A stretch of 64,000 bases of DNA from IMG/VR virus record IMGVR_UViG_3300032236_001129, positions 36,207-100,206 of that record. One strand, given 5' to 3'. The stretch is from a virus. The notes beneath the pieces are model-generated. The model was given only the letters and a program-made list of their open reading frames with translations. It was not told the origin of the DNA and searched no databases. Below are positions 11,897 through 62,963 of this stretch, one piece after another (the first letter of the stretch is position 1; every line of letters begins with the position of its first letter). A program made the translations under genes and the position numbers.

Positions 11897-11906
11897 GAAT
11901 ATAAAT

Positions 11907-11940
11907 AAGAAAGCCCCCAGTGATGGGGGCTTTTTTATTA
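11907..11940. terminator. Probably bidirectional terminator between convergent operons
   Basis: AAAGCCCCCA-GTGA-TGGGGGCTTT followed by a T run on the plus strand, A-rich upstream. Confidence 0.8.
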
Positions 11941-13322: not shown

Positions 13323-13342
13323 TGCGCCTCCTAATTTCTATC

Positions 13343-13405
13343 TAATAGGGGATCCGTGAGGACCCCCTATTAAATATTATACTAGATATTAGTACGAAGA
13401 ATCAA
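13343..13405 (-). promoter_or_regulatory. SigA-like promoter followed by a 5' hairpin
   Basis: TTGATT-18-TATAAT; then TAATAGGGGGTCC-TCAC-GGATCCCCTATTA. Confidence 0.55.
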
Positions 13406-15853: not shown

Positions 15854-16142
15854 CTAAAGTTAGCCCCTGCTTCTTAAATTTACGTTCGGCTGCATTACGT
15901 TCTCTGTGGGATAAACCGCCAAAGATTCCATGTAGCTCGTTGTTGTTGATGGCTTCCTTAAGACATTCTTTACGTACAGGACACGGTGGTCTCCCATCCT
16001 TGCCCCAACAGATTGCCTTAGCCTTGTCAGCTATGGGCTTGTATAAAGCTTTGTCTCGGGGTGGGAAGAACATCTCTGTATCTTCTCCCTGACACTTAGC
16101 ATCATATCGCCAAGTCCACGCTGGGTCGTCGTCGTAACGCAC
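15801..16142 (-). CDS. whiB: WhiB-family transcription regulator
   Basis: AKC...FFP...AKAIC...CPVRKECL...GIFGGLSHRER. Confidence 0.9.
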   Translation of the reverse strand: MRYDDDPAWTWRYDAKCQGEDTEMFFPPRDKALYKPIADKAKAICWGKDGRPPCPVRKECLKEAINNNELHGIFGGLSHRERNAAERKFKKQGLTLDEWIEQGGKNGKAGDGS

Positions 16143-16459: not shown

Positions 16460-17510
16460 CAGGACTTAGCATCAATACTGGGGTTGACTTCAAGGTATCC
16501 ATCACAGCTGCTGTGAGTTCTTCCCGCAAGTCAATCTCTTCTCGAAGCGAATCAATGAGAGCTTGAGCTCCTTGCCACTTACGATCATTATAGTACATCC
16601 AGCCACCACGTCGATCCACGATGCCATTGAGTAGAGATAGAGCTACGATTTCCTTACCGGAGTCATAGCTACCTGCATCAATAGGACCACCGTCTGCGAA
16701 GTAGAAGTCTAGATAAGCAGTCTGTTGTGGAGGATAAGTCTTGTTCTTAATAGTACGGACACGGATGGTTTGCCCCACACGGCGCTTCTCCTGTCCGGTG
16801 CCTACCTCAAGCCATTCATCACGCTTTACTTCGCAACGAACGCTGTAGGCATAGTCTTTACCAAGACCTCCCGGTGTTGTACGAGGATCGCCATGCATGA
16901 CGCCGATCTTCATACGGTATTGATTAATCATCATGCCCAGTACGGGGCGTTCTGACTCAATCAAATCTCTTTTAGTTGCTGACATCACCTTACGGAAAAA
17001 CTTATTGGTGATTAAAGCTCCTCGTCCGACGGTGAATTCATCCATTGCTTTCTCATCCTCCGCAGAAGGAACGAGGGCAGGAAGAGAATCAATAACAACC
17101 ATATCCACCGCTTTGCTTTCCATGAATTTAATAACGGCATCGAAGGCATCCTCCATACTATTGGTTTCAACAAGTAGAACACGACCTGTGTCTACTCCGC
17201 AGAGCTCTGCGTATTTTGCATCGAAGTCTTCAGCAGCAATCCATACTGCTGTGAACTCTGGATTGACTTGCTGGTTAGCAGCGATGGTACGAAGAGCGAG
17301 CGCTGTCTTACCATGTGATGCCTCACCTACTAGTTCTACCCAGCGGTTCATAGGCCAACCTCCACCTAGAACAACATCTAAGGTAAGAGAACCGGTTGTG
17401 ATTCTGCTAGGCATGTTGACGTCGCTAGCTGCAACGACAGTGTTAGATCCCAGCTTCTTGTTAAGGAGAGCTGCTACCTTGAGTGCCTCTGAATTAATTG
17501 TCATTGTCAT
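16449..17510 (-). CDS. recA: RecA recombinase
   Basis: TTGSLTLD..LGGG, GEASHGKT, VVIDS, INQYRMKIGVMHGDPRTTPGG, KNK. Confidence 0.95.
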   Translation of the reverse strand: MTMTINSEALKVAALLNKKLGSNTVVAASDVNMPSRITTGSLTLDVVLGGGWPMNRWVELVGEASHGKTALALRTIAANQQVNPEFTAVWIAAEDFDAKYAELCGVDTGRVLLVETNSMEDAFDAVIKFMESKAVDMVVIDSLPALVPSAEDEKAMDEFTVGRGALITNKFFRKVMSATKRDLIESERPVLGMMINQYRMKIGVMHGDPRTTPGGLGKDYAYSVRCEVKRDEWLEVGTGQEKRRVGQTIRVRTIKNKTYPPQQTAYLDFYFADGGPIDAGSYDSGKEIVALSLLNGIVDRRGGWMYYNDRKWQGAQALIDSLREEIDLREELTAAVMDTLKSTPVLMLSPDEE

Positions 17511-18323: not shown

Positions 18324-18451
18324 GGGCGAGATTCCCAACGCTTCTCGCAACGTGTGCAAAGGATAGTGAAATCCTGCTGCGTCCAAGAAATGCTATACAT
18401 CTTGTGCCCAAATACTCTACAAATAAACTGACTCACTTTGCTTCTACCCAT
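18320..18451 (-). CDS. Small zinc-binding protein (DUF1660-like, 43 aa)
   Basis: Read by hand: MGRSKVSQFICRVFGHKMYSISWTQQDFTILCTRCEKRWESRP; C...GH...CxRC. Confidence 0.6.
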   Translation of the reverse strand: MGRSKVSQFICRVFGHKMYSISWTQQDFTILCTRCEKRWESRP

Positions 18452-20426
18452 CTTTTGCTTCTCCCCATCTATTGACAATTTTAACATCTGCTAGAAGTGG
18501 GATATCTAGGGCTTTGATGCCTTCCATAGCTTCACGAATAGCGGCTGCTGTTTCTTCTATAATCTCTATAGGCGCAACTGTAACTAGTTCATCATGAATA
18601 GTTAGGATCATAGCAGCACCGTCAGGAAGCAGGTTGTATGCCCGCACCATTGCTAGCTTAATAAGATCCGCAGCAGAGCCTTGAATAACTGTGTTGAACG
18701 CCTGACGTTCTGCACCAGCACGACGACCCATCTCAGGAGACAGAAGGTCTGGTAGATAACGACGACGGTTTAGATATGTAAGAGCATAAGGAACCGGACC
18801 ACGCCTACGAGTTTCAGCAATGACCTTCTTCTTATACTTAGCAATAGACGGAAACTTACGTCCAAAGCTGTCTAGCAGATCACGTGCTTCTCTAGAGGAA
18901 ACTCCAATAGAAGTAGCAATCTTTTCAGGACCAACCCCGTACATCATTGCAAGTACGAGAGTTTTAGCAGCACTGCGATCTACTCCCACCGTGTTACCGA
19001 TGGTGGTATAGATATCGACTCCATCAATATAGTTCTGACAAAGAACTCTATCTCCAGAGAATGATGAAAGAATGCGTGGCTCGATCTGTGAGTAGTCAGC
19101 TACAACAAGTTGGTAGCCCTCAGGAGCTACGAACAAGTTACGGATAGCCTTACCGTTCACAGTACGAGGGTTAGGTACATTCTGCAAATTTGGATTCCGA
19201 CTTGAAAAGCGCCCCGTGTCTGCACCGTACTGAATGAAGTCAGTATGGATGCGGCCTTTAAGGAGGAGAGATTTTTTAGCCACTGTTTTTGCTTTTCCAC
19301 CTGTGGTGCGAGTGATGTCACCGCCTAGGTATGGAATCACATAAGTTGTAAGCAACTTATTCAAGTCGGAATAATTGAGTAGGGCATCAACTAAAGCATC
19401 CTTGCCCTGGAATGCTTTGAGCGCAGGCTCAGACACCGAGTAGTCTGAGATGACGGGAGCCAACCCCGCTTCGCTATTGCTGATGCCCTTAGGCGTAAGA
19501 AGGCGAGGTCGAAGCCCACGACCGCCATCTTGTTTGGATGAAAAAAGTAACTTCTGCTTTTCAGGAACACTGTTAATGTTAAAAGCTTTACCAGCTAGGC
19601 GATAGATATCAGCTTTAGTAGTCTCTAGCTGTAGCTCAAGGTTGTTCTTAAGAACCTTTAGAGCCTCGACGTCAATGTCTGCACCGTGTAATTCCATGCT
19701 AGAGATAACACGTAGCACATCCATCTCAAGATTAAATACACCACGCACACTATCACGATCTAGACGGGGTTCAAACTTCTTCCAAAGCTTCCAGGTCCAC
19801 TCAGCATCTAGTGCAGCGTAGGTAGCAACATCGTCAAAGGTGTGGATTTCAATTTGAGCACCAACACCTTTGACCATGTTGTAATTGAACTCTCGTTTTA
19901 AGCAATCATCTAGCCCCAGAGCACGGCTATTCCGGGTGTCAAGAATAAAAGCTGCGTTGAGAGTACAGGCATATGGTTGAGCAGGAAGCCCACCGATGTA
20001 TTTAGAAACACTTTGTAAATCGAACTTAAGGTTGTGACCAATTTTTAGATTGTCACTAAAGAATAAAGGCTTTAGAGCTTTGAATACTTCACCAGCTGTG
20101 AGTTGCTCAGGGGCTTCACTAAAAATCTTTGTGGCTTTACGCTCATCTTTACTGTAATCGATAGGGCGAATAGGCAAGCCCTTGATAAGACGATCTTGGG
20201 CAGAAGGTAGCAAAGGATAATCAGTACGTACGTAGTCACCATTAGGGTGACCCATAGGGATAACATCAACACGGCCGTCAGTTGCGAGCGCAATCCAAAC
20301 GACTTGGTTCTGTCGTGGGTCTCCACGAGTATCGCCCATAGTTTCTACGTCAAAGACAAAAGCGTCTTTGTTTAAGTAGTACTCTACGAGTTCAGATAAC
20401 TGATCCTCGGTTGTAATAATATTCAT
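18444..20426 (-). CDS. polA: Family A DNA polymerase with 3'-5' exonuclease
   Basis: FDVET, HNLKFD, YAALDA; TGRFSSRNPNLQN, ADYSQIEPR, KTLVLAMMYG, NTVIQGSAAD, IHDE. Confidence 0.95.
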   Translation of the reverse strand: MNIITTEDQLSELVEYYLNKDAFVFDVETMGDTRGDPRQNQVVWIALATDGRVDVIPMGHPNGDYVRTDYPLLPSAQDRLIKGLPIRPIDYSKDERKATKIFSEAPEQLTAGEVFKALKPLFFSDNLKIGHNLKFDLQSVSKYIGGLPAQPYACTLNAAFILDTRNSRALGLDDCLKREFNYNMVKGVGAQIEIHTFDDVATYAALDAEWTWKLWKKFEPRLDRDSVRGVFNLEMDVLRVISSMELHGADIDVEALKVLKNNLELQLETTKADIYRLAGKAFNINSVPEKQKLLFSSKQDGGRGLRPRLLTPKGISNSEAGLAPVISDYSVSEPALKAFQGKDALVDALLNYSDLNKLLTTYVIPYLGGDITRTTGGKAKTVAKKSLLLKGRIHTDFIQYGADTGRFSSRNPNLQNVPNPRTVNGKAIRNLFVAPEGYQLVVADYSQIEPRILSSFSGDRVLCQNYIDGVDIYTTIGNTVGVDRSAAKTLVLAMMYGVGPEKIATSIGVSSREARDLLDSFGRKFPSIAKYKKKVIAETRRRGPVPYALTYLNRRRYLPDLLSPEMGRRAGAERQAFNTVIQGSAADLIKLAMVRAYNLLPDGAAMILTIHDELVTVAPIEIIEETAAAIREAMEGIKALDIPLLADVKIVNRWGEAKDG

Positions 20427-20443
20427 TGCTCTCCTGTGAGTAG

Positions 20444-20489
20444 GTTAGGGAGCCGGTAGAAAGGAGGTTCAAAAACCCGGCTCCCCAAC
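20444..20489 (-). promoter_or_regulatory. 13-bp hairpin with an anti-SD loop upstream of polA
   Basis: GUUGGGGAGCCGG/CCGGCUCCCUAAC (one G-U pair) with loop ...GAACCUCCUUUCUA. Confidence 0.6.
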
Positions 20490-21208: not shown

Positions 21209-21234
21209 GTTGGTCTTCTTTCATAGGTCGTTGG

Positions 21235-21705
21235 TCAGTTAACTTCTTGATCGTGAATATGTTTCCAAGTATCCATCAGTTCTAGTGATAGATCTGGATG
21301 CCTATTCCAATCGATTCTTGGAGCTTCTATAAGCCCACGGGCTTCAAAAGCTTCAATGGTAGCTTCTACTATTGCTCTGCTGTACATTCGCCAACCTGGC
21401 TTCTTTACACCATTTACAATAGGAGACTTTAGTCTATAAGGTGCACGAGGAATATATCCCTTGCGTTCCCATAAACGGATAGTCACTAGAGGTCTACCGA
21501 GTGCTAGAGCAAAAGCCCCTGCACTAAATAATTCTACCACATTTCCGTTAGGTAGTTTCTTACTTTGTGGGTCTGAATCCCACGAGCCTTCTTCTTTTAC
21601 CTTAGGCTTTTTAGCCTCAGGGTTTAGAGGACGACGCTTTCTTTTAGAGCCTGGATAGTACTCATCGAGTTCCGATAGAAGACGATTTACTTGATCGTCG
21701 CTCAT
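21235..21705 (-). CDS. MerR-like HTH DNA-binding protein (start refined to MSDDQV)
   Basis: FSAGAFALALGRPLVTIRLWERKGYIP...RMYS. Confidence 0.7.
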   Translation of the reverse strand: MSDDQVNRLLSELDEYYPGSKRKRRPLNPEAKKPKVKEEGSWDSDPQSKKLPNGNVVELFSAGAFALALGRPLVTIRLWERKGYIPRAPYRLKSPIVNGVKKPGWRMYSRAIVEATIEAFEARGLIEAPRIDWNRHPDLSLELMDTWKHIHDQEVN

Positions 21706-25698: not shown

Positions 25699-25907
25699 TA
25701 TTCTTTCCAGATGTAAGTTGGGTTATCGATTGGTGTAGGAGCTGTAGCTAGAGTTCCGCACAAGGCGCACTCCATCTCTGTAAAGTACATAGCAATCTCG
25801 TAGTCATCGAACATCGCTTGGATATTCCAGACCTTAGAACCGCATGGACATATATGTGTAGGCTCTCCTCGAAGATCCAACGCTAAGCTTTCTTCTTTTT
25901 CAATCAT
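25698..25907 (-). CDS. Small zinc-ribbon protein
   Basis: CPCGS...CALCG. Confidence 0.7.
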   Translation of the reverse strand: MIEKEESLALDLRGEPTHICPCGSKVWNIQAMFDDYEIAMYFTEMECALCGTLATAPTPIDNPTYIWKE

Positions 25908-26149
25908 CGTCTCGCCTTTCTGCGAATATTACGGCGCTCTTTAGGAGTGGTTCCACCCCATACGCCTTCCTTCTCGTTAATACTTAATGCATATGCTAGA
26001 CACTTGTCTTTAATCCAGCAATCGTTACAGACCTTCTTGGCCTGTGCTACATCTGATGGTTCGTACTCTTCTGGAAAGAAGATCTCCGTATCGTAATCAA
26101 CACAGAGCTGAGTACCATCAAATGGATTGGACGCCAGCGAAAGCAGCAT
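25904..26149 (-). CDS. whiB: Second WhiB-family regulator
   Basis: C...FFP...AKKVCNDCWIKDKCLAYAL...GVWGGTTPKER. Confidence 0.9.
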   Translation of the reverse strand: MLLSLASNPFDGTQLCVDYDTEIFFPEEYEPSDVAQAKKVCNDCWIKDKCLAYALSINEKEGVWGGTTPKERRNIRRKARR

Positions 26150-27353
26150 ACTCTTCAAAACGACCCTCCTCCCAATCCCATAGTAGATCTGTCGAACCCA
26201 TACCTGAAATACGGCTAGCAGCCACAGTTAAGGAACGAGATGAATCATCTTCTTCATCCTGACGTTGTAGAACTAGAACTATGTCTGAGTCCTGCAAGAA
26301 AGATGATGTGTAACCAATTGAGTCTGCAGTAACCTTGCCCCCACGCATCTTAGAGCGCAGAGTCTGGGTACTAACTACAACTGGAATATCGTAACGCTGT
26401 GCTACACGCTTCATTCCACGAGTAAGACTACGTAGTGAGCGCTCGCTTTCTGTTTCACCAGTCTCTTCATCAAACATAAGATACATACCATCCACGAATA
26501 AGATATCAGGATTGTACTTCTCTACCTTTGCACACAAACCGGTAATAGTTCTAGAGGCCACTGTGTCGGGCATCCAGAAATCATCACGTGCGATGCCTAA
26601 GTGATCTAGATAGCGTTGCTCTTCTTCTGTACGCAAAGCTCCCATGATCAAACGCTTATGCGAGATGTGAGAACGCATAGCATCGTAACGAGTTTTCATT
26701 TCACGAGCTGTCATTTCAAATGATTGAAACATTACTCGTTGGTTTTCATCCTGTGCTTTGATAGCCATCTGCATGGCAAGCACAGACTTACCGGTCTTAG
26801 GAGGAGCAGCAATTGTCCACAGCTGCTGCTTCATAACACCAGAAGTAATCTCATCGATAGTTCTAAAGCCAGTAGACAATCCAAGCAAACCATTGGGACG
26901 AGTCTTGATAGCCATGTACTCGTCGTAGCGCTGCATAGGATCATCGCTTAGGTTTTCATCTAAAGATTCTCGTTGGTTGTCGTTCATCAAGATCTGCGCT
27001 GCAGACGCCATGGTCTGTAGAGCTGTGTTGTGATCTTGCTGAGAGACTGCCTGCTGAGCTTCCAACAAAGCATCGATAGTCTTCTGACGCTTACGGTATT
27101 CGATAAGCTGGTCAAGAAGGTATTCGATACTGTCTTCTACGGCATGCAGGACGTAGGTAGGAAAGTTATCCTTAACAGTTACGGCAGTAGGGACTTCTCC
27201 ATACTTCTCGTTATGCTTGGTAATGAACTTCCACACCTGCTTGTTGAGATCATTGAAGAACCAGTCTTCTTGTACCCCAGTCTCAAGCAGTGGCTTGATA
27301 TCTCTATTGCGGATAGCTTTAGATAATAACCGCTCTTCGTTATTTGCTGCCAC
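26118..27353 (-). CDS. dnaB: DnaB-like replicative helicase
   Basis: LSTGFRTID, AAPPKTGKS, SFEM, FVDG, QDSD. Confidence 0.85.
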   Translation of the reverse strand: MAANNEERLLSKAIRNRDIKPLLETGVQEDWFFNDLNKQVWKFITKHNEKYGEVPTAVTVKDNFPTYVLHAVEDSIEYLLDQLIEYRKRQKTIDALLEAQQAVSQQDHNTALQTMASAAQILMNDNQRESLDENLSDDPMQRYDEYMAIKTRPNGLLGLSTGFRTIDEITSGVMKQQLWTIAAPPKTGKSVLAMQMAIKAQDENQRVMFQSFEMTAREMKTRYDAMRSHISHKRLIMGALRTEEEQRYLDHLGIARDDFWMPDTVASRTITGLCAKVEKYNPDILFVDGMYLMFDEETGETESERSLRSLTRGMKRVAQRYDIPVVVSTQTLRSKMRGGKVTADSIGYTSSFLQDSDIVLVLQRQDEEDDSSRSLTVAASRISGMGSTDLLWDWEEGRFEEYAAFAGVQSI

Positions 27354-62406: not shown

Positions 62407-62479
62407 GGATCCTCCATATAAGGTTGCTTGTGCATATCATCTAATATTTACGTTAAATAATCCGCCTAAACGTTAAAGA

Positions 62480-62515
62480 CCCCCCACAGACAGGAGGGCG
62501 GTTGTCTGTGAGGGG
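62480..62515 (-). promoter_or_regulatory. 13-bp hairpin with a C-rich (anti-SD-like) loop; may also terminate transcription
   Basis: CCCCUCACAGACA-ACCGCCCUCC-UGUCUGUGGGGGG then UCUUU. Confidence 0.55.
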
Positions 62516-62543
62516 CGGAAAGAGAGTCTTTAAAAAAGCTCTC

Positions 62544-62939: not shown

Positions 62940-62963
62940 GGGGGCCCGGTTTCCCGAGCCCCC
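62940..62963 (-). other. GNRA-capped hairpin after the capsid gene (mRNA stabiliser or weak terminator)
   Basis: GGGGGCUCGG-GAAA-CCGGGCCCCC with no U tract. Confidence 0.6.

Follow-up and report, generated by a model that had tools for sequence, protein, structure and literature searches.

The stretch analysed here (the window) comprises 64,000 nucleotides and forms the right-hand part of an IMG/VR virus record (IMGVR_UViG_3300032236_001129) that is 100,206 bp long and has terminal repeats, and the element of interest is a hairpin lying between two replication genes on its minus strand, just ahead of the DNA polymerase gene polA. The phages concerned form a family of uncultured freshwater phages of actinobacteria. 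The polymerase belongs to family A and carries a 3'-5' exonuclease domain (Pfam matches DNA_pol_A, 4.3e-86, and DNA_pol_A_exo1, 1.1e-16). But what is the gene upstream of it? The initial annotation, made from the letters alone, had called its product an SSB (a protein that binds single-stranded DNA). The protein has no match in Pfam or PHROG, but its AlphaFold model (pLDDT 76.6) finds the RB69 and T4 gp32 cores as best PDB matches (probability 1.00, TM about 0.45-0.49), and it shares 23% identity (E = 6e-10) with a protein annotated as SSB in Streptomyces phage Alone3, a phage whose SSB-gap-polA arrangement is the same. The label therefore stands at the level of the fold, to which its support is limited. 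The two genes are co-oriented, with a gap of 77 nt between the stop codon of the SSB-like gene and the polA start. Because a consensus scan of the sense strand found neither a promoter nor a terminator around the hairpin, co-transcription of SSB and polA is likely.

Read along the minus strand, the TAA stop of the SSB gene (20506-20504) is followed by 14 nt, the 5' arm, the loop, the 3' arm, the spacer, the AGGAG of the polA Shine-Dalgarno (SD) sequence, AGCA and the ATG at 20426 (Table 1). The initial annotation had described a 13-bp stem that pairs fully on the transcribed strand only, through a G-U pair, a 20-nt loop holding a copy of the 16S rRNA 3' end at 20458-20468, and an SD at 20431-20435 after an 8-nt gap; the pairing was borne out and every one of these coordinates is correct. 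A repeat search gives the 13-nt arms 92% complementarity on DNA, the sole non-Watson-Crick position of the stem being G-U on the minus strand. In the loop, a G is followed by a U-run, GA, ACCUCCUUUCU (20468-20458) and A. As RNA, the hairpin folds at -27.5 kcal/mol (z = -3.15), a stability equalled by 1 of 200 shuffles. The exact 11-mer occurs once in the window, counting both strands, and allowing up to one mismatch there is 1 match where 1.4 are expected. Since this count is near expectation, the word alone is weak evidence. Rfam gave no match anywhere in the window at the gathering threshold, and a search of the element up to E = 10 returned one chance microRNA match only.

Table 1. Positions of the hairpin, the genes around it and other features (window coordinates unless marked as genome)
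Feature	Position	Strand	Remarks
5' arm of hairpin, G-rich	20477..20489	minus	covarying in 60 homologues
20-nt loop: U-rich 5' part of variable length, then anti-SD motif	20457..20476	minus	homologue loops
ACCUCCUUUCU, matching the single-stranded 3' tail of actinobacterial 16S rRNA	20458..20468	minus	identity to Actinomycetota genomes
3' arm of hairpin, C-rich	20444..20456	minus	pairs with 5' arm
Spacer between hairpin and SD, 8 nt	20436..20443	minus	in homologues sequence varies, mostly 7-10 nt
polA Shine-Dalgarno sequence AGGAG	20431..20435	minus	4 nt before ATG
DNA polymerase of family A, 660 aa, with 3'-5' exonuclease domain	18444..20426	minus	Pfam
gp32-like single-stranded DNA-binding protein gene, upstream, 234 aa	20504..21208	minus	fold match
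Second anti-SD-loop hairpin: 14-bp stem, 10-nt loop ACCGCCCUCC, U-rich tail	62479..62516	minus	CCCUCC at 62498-62493
WhiB-family genes	25904-26158 and about 15891-16112	minus	2 genes
GC-rich intercistronic hairpins, window	13339-13376, 62940-62963 (minus)		
GC-rich intercistronic hairpins, genome	3081-3104, 12937-12964, 18039-18071, 23639-23660		

Covariation of the stem and conservation of the loop

If the word itself carries little weight, what sets the hairpin apart from chance? The strongest evidence is the covariation of the stem around an invariant loop in 60 related loci. PolA searches led to about 120 related viral contigs, from which a model-fitted alignment of 60 homologues was built; it also took in one weak, unrelated hit in the window. 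Covariation across related phages, which the initial annotation had named as a way of checking the hairpin, is present throughout the stem: all 13 pairs show compensatory (double) changes in this alignment. Paired cells amount to 96.7%, against 73.6% in shuffles and 38-59% in slid controls. Among 48 unique intergenic sequences of the near clade the stems have been rebuilt repeatedly, for example as GGGGAGCCGG, GGAGGCUCCG, GAGGGGCCCG and GGGGGCCUG, while 46 of the 48 retain CCUCCUUUCU. No helix besides the main stem emerged when covariation was scored over all column pairs. A conserved upstream CCCAYUAA box could pair with the base of the 5' arm; this pairing is possible, but no support for it emerged.

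The dimensions of the element are also kept. Stems in the homologues are 10-16 bp long and start 10-17 nt after the SSB stop codon, and a loop of 16-24 nt with an invariant core is found in nearly all of more than 80 distinct sequences. The core is conserved in relatives whose PolA is 73-93% identical to that of the window, and in relatives 65-72% identical to a more distant PolA used as second query. Conservation of the loop alongside the stem was a further point on which the proposal could have failed, and the loop is kept wherever the stem is, the exceptions being the loci L123, L076 and L100/L101. A loop conserved along with its stem argues that the element is functional. On which strand, then, does it work? 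G-U wobbles on the sense strand make up 40 of the 583 stem pairs. As these pairs exist on the sense strand only, the element works as RNA, or as single-stranded nucleic acid, with the polarity of the mRNA. By these alignments, the polA hairpin is a selected RNA element of mRNA polarity (or a single-stranded nucleic acid of that polarity).

The loop and the 16S rRNA tail

How exact is the resemblance to 16S rRNA? The word GGATCACCTCCTTTCTAAGGAGC is present in at least 120 genomes, almost all of them Actinomycetota, and the Rfam small-subunit rRNA match of a Microbacterium locus has it at its 3' end. Near-clade loops are identical to actinobacterial rrn ends over 11-12 nt, a comparison made with Actinomycetota at large. 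The picture changes with distance. A large sister clade, with PolA 84-100% identical to that of locus L102, carries GUCUCCUUUCU with the motif UCUCCUUUCU, in which the first C of the core is lost and CUCCU is retained; this CUCCU is exactly what the local SD (AGGAG, GGGAG or AAGGAG) needs. The loops of more distant clades read CCUCCUUG, CCUCCUCUC, CCCUCCUAG or UCCCCCUCCUU and share (C)CCUCCU only, the nucleotides flanking the core varying widely between clades. In L123 the loop is degenerate, and L076 and L100/L101 have a short replacement loop. The 11-nt identity put forward in the initial annotation is accordingly exact in this phage, in its near clade and in a few neighbours, and gives way to UCUCCUUUCU in the sister clade and to CCCUCCU elsewhere. 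Judged by these comparisons, what is conserved is an anti-SD core within a pyrimidine-rich loop, and the 16S tail is not copied exactly throughout. The related Streptomyces phages carry a plain hairpin at the same SSB-polA site, suggesting that an attenuating hairpin was there first and acquired its anti-SD loop afterwards.

A similar juxtaposition was seen in cellular DNA. At actinobacterial rrn loci (L137-L216, for instance L175:1631-1653) the 16S tail CCUCCUUUCU is directly followed by AAGGAGC in the spacer. A precursor rRNA folding its own anti-SD onto an SD-like neighbour could be a natural analogue of the phage leader.

Does the phage itself depend on this tail? Of its starts, 57% pair with the 16S tail at -6 kcal/mol or below, compared with 9% of control positions, and the polA SD pairs with it at -7.4 kcal/mol, the average for the phage. 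The ribosome-binding site (RBS) of the SSB gene (window 21209-21235, minus strand, and homologous loci) is of the GAAAGRA type in all clades examined, GAAAGGA here, and pairs with the distal UCCUUUC of the 16S tail and not with CCUCC. An RBS that needs the distal UUUC fits a host 16S tail of that sequence. Pairing of the loop tail with this GAAAGGA-type RBS was considered and set aside: the RBS type persists where the loop has lost UUUCU, and a comparison of own with cross pairs gave no signal. A genome-wide duplex scan for a specific target in trans returned ordinary SDs only, none of them outstanding. Four relatives contain second copies of the 10-mer, and these proved to be reverse complements of the SDs of unrelated genes on the opposite strand.

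An actinobacterial host is indicated by the two WhiB genes, whose family is a hallmark of phages of actinobacteria; a scan of genome contigs with the phage WhiB protein to find that host gave no match. The GC content is about 45%. By PolA the nearest cultured relatives are Streptomyces phages (40% identity), with the SSB-gap-polA synteny in common. No near DNA match was found among the cultured phages of the collection, and the 60-nt element had only chance 18-nt matches in them, so that the collection holds no carrier. The window contains no tRNA genes. Outside it, tRNA-like sequence comes directly after a hairpin at genome positions 17160-17198 (minus strand), whose stem has 14 bp and whose loop has 11 nt.

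A second anti-SD loop and other hairpins

The polA hairpin has a companion. Strong hairpins with CCUCC in the loop number exactly two in each of four complete genomes, one at the polA site and one at a capsid site. The latter follows the major-head-protein gene and a 121-aa gene, and its GC-rich stem runs directly into a U-tract, as in an intrinsic terminator; the polA hairpin has no U-run in any clade. From its sequence, the second hairpin is predicted to be a U-tailed terminator after the major-capsid operon. The 78 related loci hold 37 unique versions of it. Their stems covary and show essentially no sequence relationship to one another, with 3-6 pair types at each of the nine loop-proximal pairs. 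The loops are 10-14 nt long and read (G)CCCUCC(UC), with CCCUCC retained in 34 of the 37 and the U-tract following. In most loci the next start lies about 55-80 nt further on, and the gene there carries a GGAGGAU site that hardly varies. The loop variant CCCUCU, found in L269, goes together with an AGAGG RBS; in L270 the RBS is the same and the loop is unchanged, so compensation between loop and RBS is suggestive only at this element. Anti-SD loops are thus a theme of the lineage, and the two genes that they follow, SSB and capsid, are those for which the highest expression is expected.

Between the terminator and the GGAGGAU site (62410-62478, minus strand, and L257-L336) there is a conserved box like TAGATGATTAGC, which may be a late promoter. 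Elsewhere in the genome, GC-rich intercistronic hairpins stand 5-25 nt upstream of strong SDs, most with 4-nt loops and one with a 7-nt loop (Table 1), in what looks like a generic operon-punctuation feature of the phage. A 16-bp palindromic hairpin between A- and T-runs (window 11904-11939), at the end of the plus-strand operon of the lysis region, looks like a bidirectional terminator.

Candidate functions and known systems

What would such a loop do in front of polA? Our preferred reading, to which we give a probability of about 0.45, is that the hairpin is a cis-acting translational attenuator on the SSB-polA mRNA. The stable intercistronic hairpin would hold open a pyrimidine-rich loop with the anti-SD core CUCCU, here extended to ACCUCCUUUCU, and the exposed anti-SD and the 16S rRNA tail would be competitors for the SDs of that transcript. 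Its main target would be the polA SD 8 nt downstream, reached through a loop-to-tail pseudoknot of 5-7 bp, and fewer ribosomes would start on polA than on the upstream gp32-like SSB gene, whose product is needed in stoichiometric amounts. At the second element, an anti-SD loop after a very highly expressed gene would damp the next gene on read-through transcripts. The loop-SD pairing itself, its repressive direction and the logic of an 'insulator behind abundant genes' are what we infer.

A cis interaction between loop and SD is the most economical reading in view of its position, its pairing energy and the extended complementarity of one subclade. In most homologues 7-10 nt lie between the hairpin and the SD. 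The predicted loop-SD duplex has 5-7 bp and -6.4 to -11 kcal/mol at 37 C, or about -10 to -16 at 15 C, and is thus stronger at lake temperatures, and the pseudoknot linkers (mostly 3-10, 3-5 and 3-10 nt) span a sterically possible distance. In the subclade L355-L361, the sole one with extended pairing, about 11 bp of complementarity join the loop to the region from the SD to the AUG, and the three substitutions that separate L355 from L356 all keep the pairing. Also in favour of the attenuator are the CUCCU that the sister clade retains, the likely co-transcription of SSB and polA, the plain hairpin of the Streptomyces phages and the precedent from B. subtilis discussed below.

Several results weigh against this attenuator. 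Loops shuffled at constant composition come close to the real ones in their pairing with the SD (-7.3 vs -8.2 kcal/mol), and local pairing therefore leaves the invariance of the full 10-mer unexplained; the UUUCU part is invariant in several clades, yet has no local partner. Loop and RBS pair no better within a clade than across clades, and loop variants are not accompanied by co-evolution of the RBS. In most clades both loop and SD are invariant, and because the ribosome also constrains both partners the loop-SD helix cannot be scored there by covariation. The loops of L076 and L100/L101 were lost with no obvious compensating change in the SD, and outside the near clade and a few neighbours the mimicry of 16S rRNA is no longer exact, other clades having UCUCCUUUCU or CCCUCCU. 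The second CCUCC-loop hairpin is a terminator and does not adjoin an SD, so that SD adjacency is no general property of the class. Finally, a second helix of 5 bp would be marginal under pseudoknot penalties, by our own uncomputed estimate. The initial annotation had proposed a pseudoknot that limits the polymerase relative to SSB: position, complementarity and the extended pairing in L355-L361 speak for it, while the shuffle, cross-clade and second-element results weaken its details.

Could a protein be the partner instead? The hairpin may be an operator for a phage or host RNA-binding protein, with PolA or the gp32-like SSB under autogenous control or with a host factor that normally recognises the 16S tail, and the capsid-operon terminator would be a second site of the same protein. 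Hairpins that proteins bind are classically marked by a changing stem around a fixed loop, there are two sites per genome with a common (C)CCUCCU, and local SD pairing does not explain the invariance of the full 10-mer. There are precedents as well, as T4 gp43 and gp32 repress their own translation through leader RNA structures (PMC3014915), and the P6 SD/anti-SD mimic of OLE RNA carries CCUCCU and is bound by bS21 (PMC12054373). However, the anti-SD core in two independent conserved loops would then be a coincidence, the nucleotides around this core differ widely between clades, the polymerase is of family A and not of the gp43 type, and a profile search for bS21 (PF01165) found none in the phage and none in the actinobacterial control genome, a Corynebacterium. 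We regard an operator as unlikely. Action in trans seems less likely than that. Both hairpins follow genes expected to be very highly expressed and could form the stable 3' ends of abundant SSB and capsid mRNAs, pairing with the SDs of other host or phage messages or serving as sponge or decoy for something that targets the 16S tail; the second, a bona fide terminator by its sequence, would mark RNA 3' ends, and the full 16S-tail identity of the near clade would suit any type of SD. Loops of this kind are used in trans by RsaE/RoxS and RNAIII, which have UCCC loops (PMC2790875), and by the actinobacterial 6C small RNA, whose loops are C-rich (PMC6486639). On the other hand, the polA hairpin has neither a U-tract nor a promoter of its own, the genome offers no outstanding complementary target, the extra 10-mer copies in relatives are only those reverse complements of unrelated SDs, and the stoichiometry against all cellular SDs or ribosomes would be unfavourable. 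A general decoy would moreover hit the phage itself, whose own starts rely on SDs. The decoy against host mRNAs, raised in the initial annotation as the alternative to the pseudoknot, is hence disfavoured. More doubtful again is the specific case in which exposed tail copies ending the SSB and capsid messages, the two most abundant ones, accumulate and act as an SD sponge that reprogrammes translation, or draw off, as a decoy, a host factor or a defence nuclease with the 16S 3' tail as its recognition site; if true, it would be a viral 'ribosome-tail mimic' strategy instead of a local attenuator.

The hairpin might also have no pairing partner at all. It could be a leaky terminator lacking its U-tract, stabilise 3' ends, keep ribosomes from re-initiating or be cut by a nuclease, and its loop would then be conserved as a site of cleavage or recognition. 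We rank such a purely structural or processing role below the trans-acting ones and consider it improbable. It would agree with the several GC-rich intercistronic hairpins with simple tetraloops just upstream of SDs in this phage, with the hairpins that L076, L100/L101 and the Streptomyces phages retain without an anti-SD loop, and with a stem that starts just beyond a terminating ribosome. But a loop of 16-24 nt weakens a purely structural hairpin and is nonetheless maintained with its invariant core, the same core recurs in the second element, and the consensus scan placed no terminator at the polA hairpin. What about the other strand? There AGAAAGGAGGT is a perfect extended SD and might be the RBS of an antisense gene. 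This is effectively refuted: as the initial annotation had noted, no ATG, GTG or TTG follows AGAAAGGAGGT at a usable distance, no open reading frame is conserved there, and the G-U pairs of the stem would become A-C mismatches.

If the cis attenuator is real, the phage would possess a compact, widely conserved device for setting protein ratios inside an operon, in which a hairpin presents the ribosome's own recognition sequence to the adjoining RBS, and a group of freshwater phages of actinobacteria that is abundant and uncultured would have its first regulatory RNA. With one element after the SSB gene and another after the capsid operon, the pattern makes a simple and directly testable hypothesis, and the RNA motif, absent from Rfam and now defined, could be modelled and searched for more widely. 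Its ingredients (SD masking, C-rich loops, intercistronic hairpins) are already known. New are a positively conserved, loop-displayed anti-SD within an operon and 8 nt from an SD, a companion anti-SD loop on a terminator in the same lineage, and the presence of these loops, for which Rfam has no family, in actinophages that are abundant and uncultured.

How does the element compare with known systems? H-type pseudoknots that sequester an SD are found in riboswitch platforms of the preQ1-II and SAM-II type and in the E. coli rpsO leader, and the phage element can also be likened to the 3' untranslated region-to-SD pairing of the icaR type. In the SD-sequestering leaders (PMC10622847), as in the phage, a covarying stem carries a loop that can pair with a downstream SD before the regulated gene. 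In the phage an unusually long stem (10-16 bp) goes with a short second helix; the loop is a copy of the 16S tail and is not tailored locally, and the element, which no Rfam model matches, has no known ligand pocket or protein partner. The T4 gene 43 and gene 32 operators involve the same kinds of replication gene (polymerase and gp32-like SSB), which likewise have to be kept in balance, and an RNA hairpin adjoining the polymerase RBS. The T4 operator is bound by a family B polymerase and has a short hairpin with a CAAC-type loop and no anti-SD, whereas the phage polymerase is of family A (DNA_pol_A). The small RNAs with C-rich loops display an anti-SD-like C/U motif in a hairpin loop and pair with G-rich SD regions independently of chaperones; they are separate trans-acting genes, whereas the phage element is part of an operon, lies 8 nt from an SD, lacks its own promoter and is matched by none of their Rfam models. 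OLE RNA likewise holds an exact CCUCCU copy of the 16S tail in a non-ribosomal RNA, able to pair with an SD-like partner, but it is a non-coding RNA of about 600 nt from Bacillota, and its partner bS21 was found neither in the phage nor in the actinobacterial control genome.

A further parallel comes from Bacillus subtilis. Gill et al. 2025 (PMC12697547) showed that anti-SD-like 8-mers repress RBSs on the same mRNA, even from hundreds of nt away. Like the phage loop, these words are pyrimidine-rich and pair with an RBS of the same transcript, lowering its translation and stability. They are normally selected against, whereas the phage word is positively conserved, displayed in a loop and found in a phage of actinobacteria. 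If the attenuator reading is correct, the polA hairpin would thus stand as a positively selected example beside the recent finding that anti-SD-like words repress bacterial mRNAs.

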